Shown here: piece after piece, positions 23,856 to 55,215 of the stretch
Position numbering within the stretch: position 1 is the stretch's first letter
Layout of the letters: each line of letters opens with the position of its first letter
NCBI GenBank assembly: GCA_963849325.1
Contig: CAWKHF010000005.1
Coordinates: 1,056,001-1,120,000 of the forward strand
DNA: 64,000 nucleotides
From: an uncultured Planctomycetota bacterium
GTDB taxonomy: Bacteria; Planctomycetota; Planctomycetia; Gemmatales; Gemmataceae
Direction: 5' to 3'
Notes under the pieces: generated by a model
What the model was told of the DNA's origin: nothing
Databases searched by the model: none
The model's input: only the letters and a program-made list of their open reading frames with translations
Program-made: the position numbers and the translations under genes

Positions 23856-23911
23856 TTCCGAGCCTGAAGCGTAAGCGAAGAGATTTCTTCGCTTACGCTT
23901 CAGGCTCGGAA
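23856..23911. repeat. REP-like palindrome, family C (GAGCCTGAAGCGTAAGCGAAG)
   Basis: Perfect inverted repeat; copies at 48787 and 50287. Confidence 0.9.
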
Positions 23912-47298: not shown

Positions 47299-48321
47299 TC
47301 AGGTGCCGAATTGCTGTAAGAAGCGTAGATCGTTGGCCCAGAATTGGCGGATGTCGTCGATGGCATAAGTCAGCATGGCGATGCGCTCCGGTCCCATGCC
47401 GAAGGCGAAGCCGCTGAACCGTTCCGGATCGTAGCCGCCGTTCCGCAAGACGACCGGATGGACCATGCCGGCGCCGAGGATCTCCAGCCAGCCGCTCCGT
47501 TTGCACAAGCCGCAGCCGGCGCCGGCGCAGACGATGCAGTCCATGTCCACCTCGATCGACGGCTCGGTGAACGGGAAGTAGCTGGAGCGGATACGCACCT
47601 GGCGCCGATCGCCGAACAGGCGGCGCGCGAAGGCGATGAGCGTGCCCTTCAAGTCGGCCATCGTCACGCGCTGTCCGATGGCCAATCCCTCGACCTGGTG
47701 GAACATGATCTCGCTGCGCGGCGTGATGGCCTCGTAGCGGTAGCACATGCCCGGCAGGATAACGCGGATCGGCTGCGGACACAGTTCACGCATGACGTGG
47801 ATCTGGCCCGGCGACGTGTGCGTCCGCAGCAGTACGCCGGGCGTCGTCGTGTGGAAGGTGTCCCACATGTCGCGCGCCGGATGGTGCTCCGGCATGTTGA
47901 GCAGGCCGAAGTTCGTCTCGTCGTCCTCGACCTCGGGGCTGCGATACACCTGGAAGCCCAGGTCGGCGAAGATGGCGTAGATGGCCCGCAGCGTCTGCGT
48001 CGAGATGTGTAATCGGCCGCGCCGCGCCGGCCGGCCCGGCAGCGTCACGTCGAGAGATTCCGACGCCAGGCTGCGGGCCAGGCTGCGTTCCTTCATGGCG
48101 GCGTCGGCGGCTTCGTAAGCCGAGGTCAGCTTCTTCTTCAGTTCGTTGGCCTGTCGCCCATACGCCGGGCGCTCGGTGGGTGGCAAGCCACCGGTCTTCC
48201 TGACCGCTTCCTCGACTTCACCCTTAAGGTATCGAGCATTCCAGGCGCACAGCGCCGCTTCGTCGGCACAAGCCTGCAAGTCCGCGAGCGCCCGTTGTTC
48301 CAGAGATGCGAGGTCGGACAT
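47299..48321 (-). CDS. pheS: Phenylalanyl-tRNA synthetase alpha subunit
   Basis: DVTLPG, HPARDM.DTF, LRTHTS, FHQVEG, YFPFTEPS, WLEILGAGMVHP and GFAFGMG.ER. Confidence 0.97.
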   Translation of the reverse strand: MSDLASLEQRALADLQACADEAALCAWNARYLKGEVEEAVRKTGGLPPTERPAYGRQANELKKKLTSAYEAADAAMKERSLARSLASESLDVTLPGRPARRGRLHISTQTLRAIYAIFADLGFQVYRSPEVEDDETNFGLLNMPEHHPARDMWDTFHTTTPGVLLRTHTSPGQIHVMRELCPQPIRVILPGMCYRYEAITPRSEIMFHQVEGLAIGQRVTMADLKGTLIAFARRLFGDRRQVRIRSSYFPFTEPSIEVDMDCIVCAGAGCGLCKRSGWLEILGAGMVHPVVLRNGGYDPERFSGFAFGMGPERIAMLTYAIDDIRQFWANDLRFLQQFGT

Positions 48322-48338
48322 GATGTTCAGGGAGTCGT

Positions 48339-48394
48339 CGGAACCCGCAGCGTTAGCGAGGGAAGTGCGGCCCTCGCTAACGCTGCGGGTTCCG
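48339..48394. repeat. REP-like palindrome, family H (AACCCGCAGCGTTAGCGAGGG)
   Basis: Perfect inverted repeat between rplT and pheS. Confidence 0.88.
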
Positions 48395-48400
48395 TTCGTT

Positions 48401-48757
48401 CTAAGGCAGGTTCGCCTTCGCCAACTCGACGATCTTGGTAAACGTATCGGGGTCGTGTACGGCCAGGTTGGCGAGCGTCTTGCGGTTCAACTCGACCTGC
48501 GCGCGCTGCAGGCCGGCGATGAGTTGGCCGTAACGCAGGCCGCGCATGCGACAGGCAGCGTTGATGCGCACGATCCACAGACGGCGGAACTCGCGTTTGC
48601 GGACGCGCCGATCGCGGAAGGCGTACACGCGGGCGCGGATGAGCGTCACCACCGCCTGCCGATACAGATGGTGCCGGCTCAGGCGGAACCCCTTGGTCAA
48701 TCGGCGCATGCGTTTGCGGCCGCGAAGGACCGTCTTGCCGCTGCGTGCTCGTGTCAT
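48401..48757 (-). CDS. rplT: 50S ribosomal protein L20
   Basis: MTRAR, KGF, AFRDRR.RKREFR.LWI.RINAA and LNRK.LA. Confidence 0.97.
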   Translation of the reverse strand: MTRARSGKTVLRGRKRMRRLTKGFRLSRHHLYRQAVVTLIRARVYAFRDRRVRKREFRRLWIVRINAACRMRGLRYGQLIAGLQRAQVELNRKTLANLAVHDPDTFTKIVELAKANLP

Positions 48758-48786
48758 GAAAAAAACTCCCTTGGCGGTCAATCTTT

Positions 48787-48839
48787 CCGAGCCTGAAGCG
48801 TAAGCGAAGAGATACTCTTCGCTTACGCTTCAGGCTCGG
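48787..48839. repeat. REP-like palindrome, family C
   Basis: Same arm as 23856; lies between rpmI and rplT. Confidence 0.9.
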
Positions 48840-48857
48840 GCAAGAACTCGTCTGGCG

Positions 48858-49058
48858 CTAGGCCTTGCCGCCCATGGCCTTGATGTACGTGCGCGACAGC
48901 TTGCCGCCGTCCACGATGACACCGCGCAACTGGCGCTTGCGCTTGCCGGTCTTGTGACTGAGCAAGTGCTTCTTGCCGGCCTGCCGGCGTTTCAGCTTCC
49001 CCGAAGCGGTCACGCGGAAGCGCTTCTTCGAGGCCTTGTGCGTTTTCATCTTGGGCAT
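48858..49058 (-). CDS. rpmI: 50S ribosomal protein L35
   Basis: [19 protein letters not shown]. Confidence 0.97.
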
Positions 49059-49161
49059 GGTTTGTGCCCCTCCCTTTCCATCCACTCCGCCGGGATGTCC
49101 GGGGAGAACCCTAATTGTAGAAGAAAAACGCGCGCGCGGGCAGGGGGGAAAAGAATCGGCG

Positions 49162-49707
49162 TCATGCTTTCGACGCCTTGGGGGCGAGCATGGCCGTCAT
49201 TCGTTTGCCCTCCATCGACGGCGCTTTTTCGATCTTGGCCACGTCCGCCAGCTTTTCCAGGATGCCGTCGATGATGCGTCGGCCCTCCTCGATGTGCTGC
49301 AATTCGCGGCCGCGAAACAGCACGTTGACCAGAACCTTGTCGTTGTGCTCCAGGAACTTGCGGGCCTGGTTGATCTTGGTATCGACGTCGTGTTCGCCGG
49401 TCTTGGGCCGGACGCGGATCTCCTTGAGCTTCTGCTGATGGACCTTGGTTTTGGTCTTCTTGTGCGACTGCTGATAGCGGAACTTGCCGTAGTCGAGGAT
49501 CTTGCACACCGGCGGCCGCTCGTTGGCGGCGACCTCGACGAGGTCCAGTTGCGCTTCGCGGGCCATCTCCATCGCTTGCGACGTGGGCACCACGCCGAGC
49601 TGTTCGCCGTTGACCCCGATCAGGCGAACCGGACTGATGCGGATTTGTTCGTTGATCCGCAAACCACGGTCGTGCGGCTGCTGCGAATGACGGTCGAAGG
49701 GGGGAAT
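49162..49707 (-). CDS. infC: Translation initiation factor IF-3 with predicted ATT start
   Basis: INEQI, LDLVEV....[15 protein letters not shown] and FRGRE; AAGGAG-N8-ATT in frame. Confidence 0.93.
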
Positions 49708-50032
49708 ACCTCGATCTCCTTTCGGAAAGGGACGCCCATTCGGACCGACGCTCGCCGGGCCGATGGCCCGGTCCACACGGATCGGCACGCGGCGATCCTC
49801 TTGCGTCGGCCGGAGGGAGGCGTCCGGTTCGTTGTCCTGGCGTGCCGGACCTTCCGGATAAAGACACGCCGGCGGAGGGAAGAGTTCACCGCCGGCCTTG
49901 GTGAAACTTTAACATCGAGAGACGTTGCAGGGAAGCCCCTTCCGCTCGGTCCCGTGAACCTTTGGTCGGATTGCTCCGTCTATCTCCTGTCCGGCCGAGA
50001 CACAGCGATTCACGCGGACGGCACGGATCGAT

Positions 50033-50108
50033 CCGGATGTAGGAGAGCCTGGTTGCATCCGCCGGCCCTGGAAGCCGGACCACGCTGGTTCAAATCCAGC
50101 CATCCGGA
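50033..50108 (+). tRNA. tRNA-Pro(UGG)-like, atypical (C33, A37)
   Basis: CCGGATG/CATCCGG acceptor, AGCCTGG D-loop, CCGGC-CCTGGAA-GCCGG anticodon arm, GCTGG-TTCAAAT-CCAGC T arm, A73; no encoded CCA. Confidence 0.75.
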
Positions 50109-50116
50109 CTGCATAC

Positions 50117-50202
50117 GGAAGGGCGAGCCAATTGGCGATGGCACCCCGCTCGAAACGGGGCGAGGCCGCAAGCCCTTGAGGGTTCGACTCCCTCTCCTTC
50201 CG
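50117..50202 (+). tRNA. tRNA-Ser(CGA), atypical acceptor-D connector
   Basis: GGAAGGG/TCCTTCC, GCCA/TGGC D stem, CCCCG-CTCGAAA-CGGGG, long variable arm, GAGGG-TTCGACT-CCCTC, G73. Confidence 0.82.
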
Positions 50203-50207
50203 CTGTC

Positions 50208-50277
50208 GGAGGGTCGCCGACGGGTGGCAAACCGCCCTGCTAAGGTGGTTCAGAAGGTTCGACTCCTTCACCTTCCG
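50208..50277 (+). tRNA. Compact tRNA with GCU (Ser) anticodon lacking the long variable arm
   Basis: GGAGGGT/ACCTTCC, GCC/GGC D stem, (AA)CCGCC-CTGCTAA-GGTGG(TT), GAAGG-TTCGACT-CCTTC, G73; 70 nt. Confidence 0.7.
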
Positions 50278-50286
50278 CTGAAGTCC

Positions 50287-50340
50287 TCGGAGCCTGAAGC
50301 GTAAGCGAAGGTTGCTCTTCGCTTACGCTTCAGGCTCCGA
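50287..50340. repeat. REP-like palindrome, family C (may terminate the tRNA transcript)
   Basis: Same arm as 23856 and 48787. Confidence 0.9.
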
Positions 50341-50362
50341 CGGAATCTCGTTGGTCCTGACT

Positions 50363-52148
50363 CTAGGGTTTGGCGATCTTCCCCTTGCGGAAGAGGTGGT
50401 CGGCGCGCTCGGCTTCCGCGGCGCTGATGAGTCCGTCGCCGTCGGCGTCGATCTGGCGAAACTCCTCGTCGGTGCCGAGAAATTCCCGACGCGATACGTC
50501 GCCGTCGTGGTTGTGGTCCATCTTGCGGAACCAGCGCGGGCCGGCGGTTCGCTCGGGCAACTGCGGCTCGTTGGCGCCCATGCGGCGGATAACGACGGCG
50601 CGCGGGGCGAACTGGTTGCCCGACGCCGGCCCTTGCCGCACGTCCACTCGATACTTGTGCGGTATCTCGCCGCGGCTGATACCGCCATCGTCGTCGCGGT
50701 CGAGCTGATCGATCAGCGAGACCATTTGCCGCAACTCGCGCAGGCTGAGCCGCCCGTCGCCGTTGGCGTCCACCAGGTCGAACAGACCCTTGCCCTGGTC
50801 CCGCACGGCCAGCGAGGCGCAGCTCCGCATGGCGCTCTCCTGCAACTCCTTCATCTTGTCCAGGTAGGCGACGATTTCCTTCTCGAACAGCTTGCCGTCG
50901 CCGTCGCGGTCCATCATCGGGAACAGGTTGCGATAGAGCGGATTTTGCTCCGCCTCCTTCTTGTCGAGGTAGCCGTTGTTATCGCGGTCGGCCATGCGGA
51001 ACTGGGCGAGATACTGCTGGCGTAGTCGAAACGCAAACTGAGGCTCCGTGGATGTGATTCCTCGGCCCAGTTCGATCTGCGTGGTGCCGAACTCCAGTAG
51101 CAAGGTCTCGTCTGATCCCGGACGAACTTGCTGGGTTCGAGGCGACGAGCGGTCCTTGGTTTGGTCCAACTCTACCGCCTTCTCCTTGTCGCTCTTGTTG
51201 CCGAGATGAACGCGGAACACCAGGTCGGGCGGCCGCTGGGCGAAGCGCGACAGTTCCTCGCTGTCCAGGGCGCCGTCCTCGTCGGCGTCGAGGCGGGCGA
51301 AGGCCGCTTCCTCCATGCCGAGATCCTGTCGGGTGAGCTTGCGGACGGCCGACCGTTTCCCCTTGGGGGCGTAGTGGTTCAACAACTCTCGGGCCAGCTG
51401 CTTGTTGCCTGGACCGGGAGTGACCATGACGAAGGGGACATCGTTGACGGGCTGCTGCTTCTCGTAGGAATAAACTGCCTCCCCTTGCGAACCGCTCGGG
51501 GCGTTGCCGCTCATCTCGCGGATGCTGACCATGTCGTCATCGTCATCGTCCAGCTTGGGCAGAAGGGCAGACGCCCGGCCCAACTCCTCGCGCGAGAGCT
51601 TGCCGTCCTTGTTGGTGTCGAGCAGGGCGAACAGCTTTTCGTTGAGAGCGTCATTGGAGAGCGGTTGAGCTCTGTCCGCATAAGTCGCACGACGAGGACT
51701 TGCTGCTGCTGCTGGAGTCCGCCCGTGCGGAACTGGAACGGCGTGGCGCCGATGCGGCGATACCAGTCGGCCAGCTCCGCGCGCGTGATCTTGCCGTCGC
51801 GGTTTTGGTCCAGCGCGCCGGGGAAGTTGGGCCGCTGGCCGACGAAATTGGGAGCGTTGTTGAACAGCACTTGCATCGGCGGCACGCGGGCCGCTTCCTC
51901 TTTGCTCAGCACGCCATCGCCGTTCTGATCCAGGTAAGCGAACAGCTTACCCATGAAATCCTCCCACACGTCGAGCAGCGGCTTGCCGTCGATGCGGACG
52001 TGGAAGCGCATCAACACCGGACCTTTGTCGCCCAGGTAAACGAAGTCCTGCACGTCGCGCTCCGGGGACAGCTTTCGGGGCGGCGCCGGCGGTCAGGCCG
52101 AAACCGAGGACGGCCAGCACGGCGGCGATCCAGAAGGGAGTTCCTCAT
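50363..52148 (-). CDS. Secreted multi-EF-hand protein (frameshifts)
   Basis: Many DxNxDGxxSxxE loops; ATG overlaps the DUF1501 stop (ATGA); hydrophobic signal after an indel. Confidence 0.85.
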
Positions 52149-53477
52149 GCGACCACCTCCTTGACGGGCTTGGCCGTGGGTTCGACGAGGCGGATCGGCC
52201 GGCCGACGTTGGAGTTGTTCTGCTTGCGGATGTCCAATCCCAGAGCGAGGCCGATGGTGCCGAGCAGATCGGGCACTTCCACCTTGCGTTCCTCGACGGA
52301 CATGCCGTCGGGGCTGGTCTTGCCGACGACTTGCCCGCCCTTGATGCCGCCGCCGGCCAGCACCGTGGACCAGGAGACGGCCCAGTGATCGCGGCCGGTG
52401 CGCTCCGTGGCGATCTTCGGCGTGCGGCCGAACTCGCCCATCCACACGATGAGCGTGGAGTCGAGCAGCCCCTTGGCCTTGAGGTCGTCCATCAGCGTCG
52501 CCCAGGCCGGGTCGAGCGTGCCGCTGAGCCGCTTGACCTGGTCGAAGTTCTGGTTATGCGTGTCCCAGCCGTTGAGGCTCACTTCGACGAACGGCACGCC
52601 GCGCTCGACGAGACGGCGAGCCAGCAGACAGCCCTGGCCGAACAGGTTGCGGCCGTACGGCGTCGCGCAGCTTGGCCGGCTCTTCGTCGAGGTTGAACGC
52701 CTTGACGGCGGCGGAGCGCATCATGGTGACGGCCCGCTGGTAGGCGGTGCGGTGGCTCTGGGCGGCGATGCTGGCGTGCTGGGCCAGGAAGTCCTGCTCC
52801 ATCTCATCGAGCATCTGCAAACGCGCCGCCGCGCGCTTGGCGTTGACGTCGCCGGGCAGGTCGAGGTCTTGCACGCGCAGCGCCTGGGCCACGTCGCCGC
52901 CGCGCTGCGGGCCGAGGCCGTTGCCGTTCTCGCCGACGATCAGAGGAGCGTACTGCGGCCCGAGGAAGCCGGGCGTGTAGGCGGCGGGATTGAGGAAACG
53001 GAACGGCGCGATGCTGACGAAGCTGGGCAGCTCGGCGTCGGGGCGCTCCAGCTCCTTGGCCACGAACGAGCCGAGCGGCGGATACTGGATCGGCCCGCCC
53101 GGCAGGCGGCCGGTACGGAGGTAATAGGTGGCGCGGCCGTGGTCGGCCTCCTTGGTACTCATCGAGCGGACCAGCACCATGTCTTTCATGTGCGTGGCGA
53201 GCTTGGGCAGGTGCTCGCTGATCTTGATGCCGGGCACGCTGGTGGCGATCTCCTTGTAGGGGCCGCCGTTGGCGTGGCCGGGCTTGAGATCGAAGGTATC
53301 CATCTGGCTGGGTCCGCCGGCCATCCACAGGAGGATGCACGCGCGTTTGCGTTCGGGGCTGGTGGCCGTGGCGGCGGCCAGGTTCTCCAGCCAGCCGGAC
53401 ATCGAGTAACCAATGACGCCGGCCGACGACAGCGTCAACCATTCGCGCCGCGACAGGTGATTCGAGGGGAGGGTCAT
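52145..53477 (-). CDS. DUF1501 Tat-exported protein (frameshift near 52660)
   Basis: SRREWL, CILLWM.GGPSQ.DTFD.KP, GWDTH, GEFGRTP and GRDHW. Confidence 0.9.
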
Positions 53478-53497
53478 GAGGGGATCTCCTGCGATTT

Positions 53498-53561
53498 GGC
53501 GAGCGGGGGGCGTCAGCCCCCTGTCTGGCGCTCAACAGGGGGCTAACGCCCCCCGCTCGCC
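53498..53561. repeat. REP-like palindrome, family E
   Basis: Imperfect inverted repeat with the same arm as 16395. Confidence 0.85.
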
Positions 53562-53567
53562 CATGAG

Positions 53568-55215
53568 TCAATGATTGAGGAAGAATTCGCCGCTGTTGAG
53601 CAGCACCCAAAACACGTCGGCCAGGGCTTGGTTGTACCGTTTGTCCTTGTCGGCCGAGGTCGCGGTAGCCTTGTCGTCGGACGAGCCGCCGCTTTCGACG
53701 TACCGGACCATGCGCGACAGTTCTTTCGGCGTCGGCTTGCGGGCCAGCGCCGCCAGGTAGAGCGTCTCGACGCGCTCGGCCGTGTCCATGAAGGGAGCGT
53801 CGAGCAGGGCGGCCAGCGTCTCGCTGCGCTCCAGGTGGGTCGCCTCGGACGTGATCTGATCCGTTCATCAGCGACAGCGCTTGCAGGATGGACGTCTGCA
53901 CCTCGGTCGCCTGGTCGCTGGTGTTGGCGAACTGGGTCAGGAAGCGGCCGCGCGCCCCTGATTGCCGAAGAACGGATTGTTGTTGCGGTTGCCCGTCTCG
54001 CGGTAGCCGGTCGCCTGGGCGACGCTGTCGAACAGTTGCTCGGCGGACAGACCGCGCAGCGGCATGCGGGCGAAATGATGCGGGTCGTCCTGGCTGTCGT
54101 GCGTGGACCGAGCTGCCGAGCTGGTAGGCCCGGCTGGCCGTGATGGCGCGGATGAGGAACTTCAAGTCGAAGTCGTGGGCGGCGAACTGGCGGGCCAGCT
54201 CGTCGAGCAGCTCGGGATGGCTGGCCGGGTGCTCGCCGCCGACCATCTCATCGACCGGGTCGATGATGCCGGTGCCGAAGAAGTAACCCCACAGGCGGTT
54301 GACCGCCGCCCGCGCGAAATAGGGGTTGTCCTTGCTGGTCATCCACTCGGCCAAGGTGGAGCGGGCGCTGGTGTTGAACTTCCATTTCGGCTGCGTGCCG
54401 TCGAGGAATGCGGCCTGCACGACGCGCTCGGTGCCGGGGATGGTCAGCTCGCGGCGGTCGGCGACCTCGCGGCCGGCGGCCACGAAATCGCCGTTTCCCT
54501 GCCGTTGCAGGCTGGCGAAGAAGGCGGCGTAAGCTCCAGAACTGATCGCGCTTCCACTCCGCGAACGGGTGATTGTGGCACTGGGCGCATTCGATCTTCA
54601 CGCCCAGAAACAGCCGCGCCGAGGCGGCGGCCAGGTTCTCCGGCTTGACCTCCTTGGCCAGGTAGAAGGCGATCGGCGTCGGTTCGCCGCCTTGCTGCCC
54701 GAAGGGATTGCGGCCCTGTCCGTTCATCGGCGCCGTGAGCAGTTCGCGCACCAGAACGTCGTAGGGCGTGTTCTGCTGGAGTTTCTTGTGCAGCCAGGCC
54801 TCGAAGCCGGGGGCGAGGAAACGCGCCTGCAAGCTCGCCGTCGTCTCGGGCAAGAGCAGGGCGCGCCAGACGTTGGTGAAGTGCGTGACGTAGCGCGGCC
54901 CGGCGAGCAGCTGCTCGACCAGGCGCTGCCGCTTGTCGGGCCGTCTTGTCGTCGAGGAAGCGGCGCACCTCGGCGACGGAGGGGATGCGTCCGGCCAGGT
55001 CGAGATAAACGCGGCGGACGAACTCGGCGTCCGTCGCCGGGGGTGCCGGCTGGACCTTGTCGGCGGCTCCAACCGTCCGCGAGGGCACGATCGATCCGAG
55101 CGGCCAGCGCCATCACGTCCGGGTCGGACGCCGCGCCGGGGGCCGCCTGTGCCGCCGTGTACAGGCCGGCCAGCGCGACACAGCCGCTCATCAGCCATAA
55201 TGGAAGACGGATCAT
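53568..55215 (-). CDS. DUF1549/DUF1553 protein (frameshifts)
   Basis: FVRR.YLDLAGRIP, FLG..I.CAQCHNHP, NPYFARA.VNR.W..FFG.G, SHPELL, QAL.LMN and D.FW.LLNS.EF..NH. Confidence 0.9.

Follow-up and report, generated by a model that had tools for sequence, protein, structure and literature searches.

Bacterial SerRS, by the textbook identity rule, finds its tRNAs by their long variable arm. The window (the whole stretch of DNA analysed here, 64,000 nucleotides long) carries on its plus strand, at 50208–50277, a 70-nt compact tRNA that has the AGY-reading anticodon GCU, a Ser-type acceptor end and, judging by its sequence, serine descent, and that has no such arm. The locus therefore raises the question of whether the standard SerRS, or some other enzyme, can charge this tRNA. 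Our best reading is that it is a selected, extra AGY-decoding tRNA with an mt-tRNA-Ser(UCN)-like shape, a reading to which its observed anatomy, descent, conservation and recurrent architecture all point.

Anatomy and genomic setting of the compact tRNA

ARAGORN called the gene as tRNA-Ser(gct) at 50208–50278, with the anticodon at position 32. In its drawing, the acceptor stem of 7 bp is formed by 50208–50214 and 50270–50276, has G4.U69 as its fourth pair and is followed by the discriminator base G73 at 50277, with no CCA encoded 3′ of it. A single connector, the C at 50215, leads into the D arm (50216–50228), where the stem GCCG/TGGC closes a 5-nt loop, ACGGG; the original prediction was right about the presence of a D stem but put it at 3 bp, and it can be 4 bp including one G.U. 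After an AA junction (50229–50230), the anticodon arm (50231–50249) has a stem of 6 bp, extendable to 7 bp with an A-U pair (AACCGCC/GGTGGTT), and presents the anticodon GCT at 50239–50241 inside the loop CTGCTAA. The variable loop (50250–50252) is 3 nt long, or 2 nt, and the T arm (50253–50269) reads GAAGG-TTCGACT-CCTTC. The predicted extension of the anticodon stem to 6–7 bp and the predicted variable loop of 2–3 nt are both borne out by this drawing, while the 7-bp acceptor stem, the single C connector, the canonical T loop and G73, also predicted, were recovered by ARAGORN and RNAalifold alike, the latter yielding the same cloverleaf independently from the five members of the family described below.

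The gene has the features by which a tRNA is known: four arms, an acceptor stem of 7 bp, an anticodon loop of 7 nt in which position 33 is U and position 37 a purine, and a T loop of the form GTTCRANYC. U33, U36 and A37 are invariant in 5/5 family members, and U36-A37 is what AGY- or ANN-reading tRNAs carry. The acceptor end is of the Ser type, with G73, G1-C72, G2-C71 and A3-U70, the last present in four of the five members and replaced by G3.U70 in one metagenome locus (L103). The class II hallmark, a variable stem-loop of at least 10 nt, is absent, the variable region being 2–3 nt. Against Rfam RF00005 the sequence scored 23.6 bits (E = 0.12) and did not reach the gathering threshold of 29 bits, which fits its odd geometry of a 1-nt connector and a lengthened anticodon stem. 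Folded as a single sequence it gave −30.1 kcal/mol (z = −2.09), a value matched by 7 of 200 shuffles; the D-arm register of this lowest-energy fold differs from that of the cloverleaf because the connector is C and not A.

The compact tRNA closes a Pro(UGG)-Ser(CGA)-compact tRNA mini-array called by ARAGORN on the plus strand (50033–50278). The array opens with tRNA-Pro(UGG) (50033–50109), which scores 52 bits with the Rfam tRNA model, and continues with an 87-nt class II tRNA-Ser(CGA) with a long variable arm (50117–50203), the sole Ser(CGA) that ARAGORN found in the source assembly, from which the compact tRNA is separated by a spacer of 4 nt. Directly after the compact tRNA, on the plus strand, lies a long perfect hairpin (50285–50344), one copy of a genome-wide palindromic repeat, with 106 hairpins of this type in the genome; it is possibly the end of the transcript, though it has no T tract, and a promoter and terminator scan of 49750–50450 found nothing. 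Together, the three tRNAs and the hairpin lie in a segment (49946–50377) that by blastn has no DNA likeness to same-genus relatives and that sits between the upstream region of infC and an EF-hand gene: when positions 48300–52000 were compared with seven loci of relatives, the matches ended at ~49945 and resumed at 50378. ARAGORN found no tRNA in the infC loci of five relatives (gene plus ~1.5 kb on each side), and five of the six EF-hand homologue loci of relatives were likewise without a tRNA, the sixth holding an unrelated Lys(ttt). Nearby lie infC and pheS, both encoded on the minus strand, and the genes for an EF-hand protein, DUF1501 and PSCyt2/DUF1549; we take the mix of PSCyt2/DUF1549 with DUF1501 to be typical of Planctomycetota.

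The source assembly (8.16 Mb in 14 contigs, 65% G+C, 85% marker completeness) holds 92 tRNA genes by ARAGORN and, besides the trio, three dense arrays of 7, 13 and 12 genes. The original prediction had raised the matter of a canonical Ser(GCU), and the genome does have one, a housekeeping class II tRNA of 90 nt at the end of contig C9 (C9:487349–487438). The compact tRNA is the only array-located GCU tRNA in the whole assembly, and a long array-type Ser(GCU) is not present there. Lying in a dense same-strand run of tRNAs and having a separate housekeeping isoacceptor, it has the marks of an extra tRNA, one that is borne by an array and, as its sequence suggests, folds into a compact cloverleaf of mitochondrial type. 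Four public sequencing runs, two of RNA and two of DNA, with shares of sampled words of 0.15 or less in the run search, have contigs over the Pro and Ser(CGA) genes and the hairpin repeat and none at 50206–50285 or at the unique flanks; since those flanks are also uncovered, the runs say nothing about the compact tRNA.

Descent, recurrence and conservation

We compared the compact tRNA with 281 ARAGORN tRNAs from the source genome and 19 loci of relatives. The closest of these is an array Ser(gct) of 87 nt, which belongs to an array-type Ser(GCU) of 87–91 nt that recurs in the family (L013, L022, L023, L025, L026, L029 and others). Aligned with the 88-nt Ser(GCU) of L025 and L026, it is identical at 60 of 68 bases, with a single clean gap of 13 nt exactly at the variable arm and a gap of 3 nt in the D loop; identity elsewhere is 49/69 with a compact tRNA-Trp, 53/64 with the neighbouring Ser(CGA) and 53/66, with scattered gaps, with the housekeeping Ser(GCU). 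With the array-type class II Ser(GCU) the compact tRNA shares the acceptor stem GGA(A/G)GGT/ACCTTCC and G73, the AGCCG at the start of the D arm, a loop core TGCTAA that holds the anticodon GCU, the flanks of the variable arm (TGGTTCA...GA) and the T loop. What sets the compact tRNA apart, on the other hand, is that it is without the 13-nt variable arm and without 3 nt of the D loop, that it has purines where the CCGG strand formed the 3′ side of the D stem, which now forms one base earlier, and that it has G4.U69 for A4-U69 and, in the T stem, A-U for G-C.

At the level of sequence, descent from a tRNA-Ser(GCU) appears clear. An array-type Ser(GCU) ancestor would have lost its variable arm of 13 nt, and its D loop would have been shortened by 3 nt with loss of the old 3′ D-stem strand, leaving a D arm that pairs one base earlier.

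BLAST searches of genomes had suggested a one-off deletion. No full-length match to the compact tRNA outside its source genome was found when the three-gene stretch was searched in 61 genomes, and a search of 252 family genomes with the compact tRNA itself gave matches in 98, all of them partial outside the source genome (251 other genomes); most of these cover other Ser tRNAs at their T arm and acceptor end, and a few cover the anticodon arm of the array tRNA-Arg(gcg). The idea of a one-off deletion was overturned by four metagenome homologues, which were found with a pattern that runs from the anticodon loop CTGCTAA through the short variable region and T loop to the Ser-type 3′ end CTTCCG. 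As this pattern demands both CTGCTAA and the CTTCCG acceptor end, more diverged armless GCU tRNAs would be missed.

In metagenome contigs the pattern occurs at 23 places, of which four are homologues of the compact tRNA (L089, L100, L103 and L105), ten are variable arms of tRNA-Sec, one is the variable arm of a Ser(act), one is a long 'Asp(atc)' and five are not tRNA; the remaining two (L090 and L104) are copies of a 74-nt GCU gene that is unrelated and poorly paired, with mismatched acceptor stems, and lies in an AT-rich array. One genome each of 185,579 species gave 13 places and no homologue (ten tRNA-Sec variable arms, one Ser(act) variable arm, two non-tRNA), and the single match in viral contigs is a normal 92-nt Ser(gct). 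Phage and plasmid records include none with an array bearing the compact tRNA, their single-tRNA matches having a coverage of 5% or less. A covariance model built from the five family sequences scores the compact tRNA at 99.1 bits, the best in 150 other family genomes reaching 48.5 bits. The family is rare.

All four homologues are 71 nt long by ARAGORN, and each lies downstream of a tRNA-Ser(cga), with a spacer of 4 nt in three of the four loci and a 168-nt simple-repeat insertion between the two genes in L103. Their contexts differ: a 19-tRNA run in L100 (Lys-Pro(cgg)-Ser(cga)-compact tRNA-Gly(tcc)-Glu and onward), a run of six tRNAs including the homologue in L103, Ser(cga)-compact tRNA-His followed by an ABC-type gene in L105, and Ser(cga)-compact tRNA followed by coding sequence in L089. 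The flanks of the five loci are unrelated and not alignable. The recurrence of this short form in four independent metagenome contigs excludes removal of the variable arm by the assembler, which the original prediction had named as a possible artefact.

Across the five members, 60 of 71 columns are invariant, including the anticodon loop CTGCTAA and the D-loop GG in 5/5, within a D loop AYGGG and beside a T loop TTCGAYT. Five of the 11 variable columns are unpaired (the connector and one base each of the D loop, junction, variable loop and T loop). Two make up the possible seventh anticodon-stem pair, which two members form as A-U and one as G-C, the other two having A.C; two more are stem positions at which pairing is kept (A-U to G.U, and G.U against G-C); and the last two are the closing pair of the anticodon stem, both sides of which are changed, to A.C, in L105. 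Standard pairs occupy 112 of 115 pair cells (97.4%; 23 pairs in five sequences). The percentage paired was reached by 69 of 500 shuffles and the covariation score by 284 of 500, with one pair changing on both sides; the five sequences are too alike for covariation to prove the fold, and the relative rate of change is therefore the better argument. Between L100 and L103 the compact tRNA is 94.4% identical, the five neighbouring tRNA genes are 86–99% identical and the spacers, with the 168-nt insertion left out, are identical at 50 of 75 positions (67%). The compact tRNA is thus a real, conserved gene, and from these alignments it looks held by selection in five unrelated genomic contexts.

Among the best of the weaker covariance-model matches were 70–71-nt tRNA-Trp(CCA) genes, with the anticodon at position 32 by ARAGORN, of which 17 distinct sequences occur across the loci analysed, including array C of the source genome. 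Aligning 16 of these sequences gave pairing in 96% of cells and compensatory changes at 16 of the 22 pairs; neither the observed percentage paired nor the covariation score was reached by any of 500 shuffles. In their cloverleaf the single connector is an invariant U, the D stem has 4 bp and the D loop 6 nt, the variable loop has 3 nt, and the anticodon stem has 5–6 bp, the sixth pair being formed in 11 of the 16 sequences. This compact array tRNA-Trp has the architecture of the compact GCU tRNA and, in some members, an identical T arm, but its anticodon and acceptor stem differ and it is widespread in the family, where the GCU tRNA is rare. TrpRS reads the anticodon, so the charging of the compact Trp poses no puzzle. 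Since the covariation-backed Trp shares the geometry of the compact GCU tRNA, this geometry is a working design in the arrays and not a by-product of decay.

These findings bear on whether the gene is a decaying pseudogene, that is, an arm-deleted copy of an array Ser(GCU) that persists and spreads with the useful Ser(CGA) 4 nt away. Such an origin would agree with the absence of the SerRS arm and the Rfam score below threshold, with the rarity of the gene (no full-length match in 251 family genomes, 0 of 13 species-genome pattern places), and with the lack of a counterpart to its segment at the same site in same-genus relatives. It would also agree with the company that the gene keeps, as evident wrecks occur in arrays, among them the Nostoc 'Ser(cga)' of 71 nt and the 74-nt GCU gene of L090 and L104, and planctomycete clusters are called degenerate in the available text of PMC4807772. 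Missing arm, low Rfam score and rarity, together with the A.C closing pair of L105, also count against reading the gene as a functional tRNA. Decay, however, would not be expected to keep the 23 predicted pairs in 97.4% of cells, to leave the anticodon loop, the T-loop motif and the D-loop GG invariant, or to hold the gene as conserved as its working neighbours when the spacers are 67% identical and the flanks cannot be aligned; nor would random decay be expected to produce a remodelled D arm and a longer anticodon stem that match the covariation-backed array Trp. We consider the pseudogene account unlikely, including the non-conserved pseudogene of which the original prediction had warned, since the gene has been preserved beside Ser(CGA) where spacers and flanks have diverged. 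To the reading that the compact tRNA is a functional member of a small, conserved compact-tRNA family derived from array-type class II Ser(GCU), and probably kept by selection, we would give an even chance.

Decoding, charging and the remaining alternatives

If the compact tRNA is a working, selected gene, it would be co-transcribed with the tRNA-Ser(CGA) lying 4 nt upstream and released by RNase P and 3′ processing, and CCA would be added afterwards, since none is encoded. Within the array-borne set of tRNAs it would then stand in for the AGY (AGC/AGU) decoder. Since there is a housekeeping Ser(GCU), the compact tRNA is not needed for decoding in this genome.

A second alternative takes the compact tRNA out of decoding altogether, as an uncharged decoy, as a nuclease-resistant stand-in within a stress or anti-defence array, or as a 3′-end processing signal for Ser(CGA). 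Its invariable position downstream of Ser(CGA), at 4 nt in four of five loci and at 168 nt in L103, suits such a role, and there are precedents for arrays with special functions: according to the sections available of PMC8421152, the long array of Anabaena is silent until translation is impaired, and non-canonical roles of operonic tRNAs are left possible there, while mycobacterial arrays are called a putative anti-defence system in the available part of PMC12803027. Elsewhere, however, Ser(CGA) directly precedes Gly(tcc) or other tRNAs in arrays that are without the compact tRNA, which is therefore not needed for processing. Furthermore, an invariant GCU loop and a Ser-type acceptor end suit a decoder rather than a decoy or a processing signal, and no toxin or nuclease gene is linked to it in the five loci, whose flanks were read by eye only. 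We regard a role outside decoding as unlikely.

For a decoder, the difficulty is charging. The long variable arm is a major SerRS determinant in E. coli, in T. thermophilus and in the eukaryotic cytosol, and its removal lowers serylation by orders of magnitude. In work on E. coli minihelices, acceptor-end features like those found here let SerRS act weakly but specifically without the arm. The source genome has one bacterial-type serS locus (C4:340423–341690; the assembly is 85% complete). This locus reads as two overlapping open frames, suggestive of a frameshift, which in turn suggests an indel error because a nearby DUF1501 gene is also truncated. In the same assembly, at its 85% completeness, no PylRS was found above threshold (best TIGR02367 score 24 bits against a cut-off of 178), nor a methanogen-type SerRS, nor a second or mitochondrial-like SerRS. 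The single ordinary SerRS would be the enzyme to attach serine, acting through the retained G73, G1-C72, G2-C71, A3-U70 and purine4-pyrimidine69. From the sequence, serine is the likeliest amino acid for the compact tRNA, and serylation without a variable arm would probably be inefficient. As the compact tRNA keeps acceptor features that are active in E. coli minihelices, we favour inefficient serylation combined with AGY decoding.

The third alternative keeps the decoding and changes the amino acid, with a synthetase other than SerRS charging the compact tRNA and so placing a non-serine residue at AGY codons, in regulated mistranslation or recoding. Loss of the arm does remove the main handle of SerRS. 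ArgRS is a candidate, as tRNA-Arg(YCU) has the same C35 and U36, and AlaRS is one through the G.U pair in the acceptor stem: G4.U69 was gained in all five members, the long relatives having A4-U69, and L103 has in addition G3.U70, the classical AlaRS mark. Arrays also contain likely anticodon-shifted genes, namely the 71-nt GCU gene of L020, which occupies the slot of Gly(GCC) elsewhere, and the 74-nt 'Tyr' of L031, which resembles Thr(cgt). But ArgRS expects A20, and the D loop AYGGG has no A at that position; G3.U70 occurs in only 1/5 members; and G4.U69 is, to our knowledge, not accepted by bacterial AlaRS. Moreover, there is no change in the Ser-type acceptor stem or in G73, no extra synthetase was found in the assembly (PylRS hits of 24 bits or less, no methanogen-type SerRS), and signs of AGY recoding were not found in this analysis. 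Charging by another synthetase is in our judgement very unlikely.

The reading of the compact tRNA as a selected, extra AGY decoder can be widened to the arrays in which its relatives lie. Relatives in the same family are rich in tRNA arrays, which pack as many as 28 genes into 3 kb, and the arrays of L013 and L020 include tRNA-Ile(UAU). This agrees with published accounts, so far as their available text goes: Planctomycetes are among the phyla that have long tRNA arrays (PMC8421152, PMC4758250), and planctomycete tRNA clusters are described as degenerate, with many partially degraded tRNAs, and as carrying tRNA-Ile(UAU) (PMC4807772). We tentatively suggest, as a possibility that falls well short of being probable, that soil planctomycete-like bacteria keep a parallel, array-borne set of compact tRNAs (class I-like Leu, 71-nt Trp, 69-nt Met and the compact GCU tRNA), and that in this set the compact GCU tRNA is a working AGY decoder charged by an ordinary synthetase without the arm, either with serine, a mode undescribed for bacterial SerRS, or with another amino acid, giving conditional AGY mistranslation. 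If this is true, either outcome of charging would be the first case in bacteria to parallel the way in which mitochondria deal with armless serine tRNAs.

Comparison with known systems

The closest setting is that of long tRNA arrays of the L-array type, which consist of dense, same-strand, extra tRNA genes. Homologues of the compact tRNA lie in arrays of at least 19 genes, whereas in the source genome it sits in a cluster of three. The Nostoc array has short tRNA-Leu of 75–78 nt, as do the arrays of the relatives of the compact tRNA. The delta-plasmid array of Nostoc PCC 7120 holds no counterpart of the compact tRNA: its sole 71-nt 'Ser', with the anticodon CGA and mismatches in the acceptor stem, does not resemble it, and its Ser(gct) is a normal 90-nt class II tRNA, so that the atypical tRNA-Ser(GCU) of cyanobacterial arrays, to which the original prediction referred, was not borne out there. 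In the main texts of the open-access literature searched, neither a lineage of bacterial tRNA-Ser lacking the long arm nor a compact Trp or class I-like Leu in arrays was found to be described, and among the array papers listed the phrase 'long variable arm' does not occur.

In architecture, the combination of a 1-nt connector, a 6-bp anticodon stem and a 3-nt variable loop was previously known from mitochondria and from tRNA-Pyl, and has arisen independently in free-living bacteria. The arrays of this bacterial family contain several compact tRNAs, scaffolds that are of interest as orthogonal tRNAs for genetic-code engineering. The original prediction of a geometry like that of tRNA-Pyl or mt-tRNA-Ser(UCN) was correct. 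According to the part of PMC7609411 that deals with it, tRNA-Pyl combines a single connector and a D loop of 5 nt with an anticodon stem of 6 bp, a variable loop of 3 nt, G73 and G1-C72, and is without the G18G19 and T-Psi-C motifs. The sizes of the connector, D loop, anticodon stem and variable loop are all as in the compact tRNA, and so are G73 and G1-C72. The compact tRNA, however, has the anticodon GCU and not CUA and keeps the GG and TTCGA motifs, and no PylRS was detected in its genome, assembled to 85% completeness.

With these two motifs kept, the best fit is to mammalian mt-tRNA-Ser(UCN), for which the corresponding part of PMC7609411 gives a single connector, a small D loop, a 6-bp anticodon stem and a 3-nt variable region, with G18G19 and T-Psi-C kept. 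The compact tRNA shares with this type I tRNA both its architecture and a serine lineage. It differs in being bacterial and chromosomal, in having the anticodon GCU and not UGA, and in being GC-rich with fully paired stems. Whereas mt-tRNA-Ser(UCN) is served by a specialised mitochondrial SerRS that reads the T loop, the genome of the compact tRNA has only one, ordinary bacterial serS locus. The likeness between the two is convergence, not homology.

Compact tRNA-Trp(CCA) and tRNA-Met(CAU) in the arrays

The arrays, dense same-strand runs of tRNA genes, contain a widespread compact tRNA-Trp(CCA), represented in the source genome by a 71-nt gene (contig C12:838553-838623) and found at other loci (L003, L008, L013, L022, L028, L034, L036, L100, L114-L118, L120, L123 and L126). 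In this tRNA one U connects the acceptor and D stems, the D stem has 4 bp, the anticodon stem 5-6 bp and the variable loop 3 nt. The fold is strongly backed by covariation, with 16 of 22 pairs compensatory and an observed score that none of 500 shuffles reached. A further non-canonical array tRNA is a compact tRNA-Met(CAU) of 68-69 nt (loci L009, L014, L037 and L048; for example, L037 1103-1171), which has a mini D hairpin rich in G+C and its anticodon at position 28-30.

Probable anticodon variants and unusual tRNA calls

Two array genes are likely anticodon-shifted: a 71-nt GCU gene with U73 (L020 1426-1496), which occupies the slot held by Gly(GCC) in other arrays, and a 74-nt 'Tyr(gta)' (L031 365-438), which closely resembles the adjoining Thr(cgt). 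A poorly paired 74-nt GCU gene (L090 1345-1418 and L104 1500-1573) lies in an AT-rich metagenome array (39% G+C), together with a 72-nt tRNA of anticodon UCA designated 'SeC' by ARAGORN. In the source genome, ARAGORN also predicted a 72-nt tRNA with anticodon UUA (C2:189639-189710) that would decode the stop codon UAA, and a 78-nt 'tRNA-Ser(gct)' call (C5:716835-716912), with an acceptor stem of 8 bp and an anticodon stem of 4 bp, is probably false or a tRNA-like remnant.

The family of X, its neighbourhood and overlapping reading frames

Among the relatives of X, the compact armless GCU tRNA of the window, the metagenome homologue L103 (1472-1542) is the single family member whose acceptor stem has both G3.U70 and G4.U69, the former being the classical identity pair for alanine. 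A perfect palindromic repeat with the arm GAGCCTGAAGCGTAAGCGAAG is present three times in the window (23860-23907, 48789-48837 and 50290-50337). Across the source genome, the arm has 336 exact copies, and two inverted arms lie within 45 nt of each other at 106 hairpin-forming places; the repeat looks like a REP-like intergenic element. At metagenome locus L105, a sequence related to the repeat precedes the Ser(cga)-X pair.

The serS gene of the source genome (C4:340423-341690; L109 461-1764, minus strand) reads as two overlapping open frames of 100 and 351 aa. In the window, DUF1501 (52554-54483) is truncated and also has overlapping frames. Both cases suggest assembly indel errors or real frameshifts.

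Array-only tRNAs and the short tRNA-Leu

The arrays of the source genome may not be merely redundant, because Asn(GUU), Ser(CGA), Arg(GCG), Leu(CAA) and Leu(UAA) were found solely there in the whole, 85% complete assembly. Array tRNA-Leu genes are often just 74-78 nt long, too short to include the long variable arm typical of class II tRNA-Leu (C1:516042-516115 and C4:434429-434502 in the source genome); in this 85% complete assembly, Leu(CAA) and Leu(UAA) exist solely in this short form. Short array tRNA-Leu genes occur at many other loci (for example, L023, L025 and L029), in the source bacterial family as well as in the long array of Nostoc PCC 7120 (plasmid locus L111 1054-1590).
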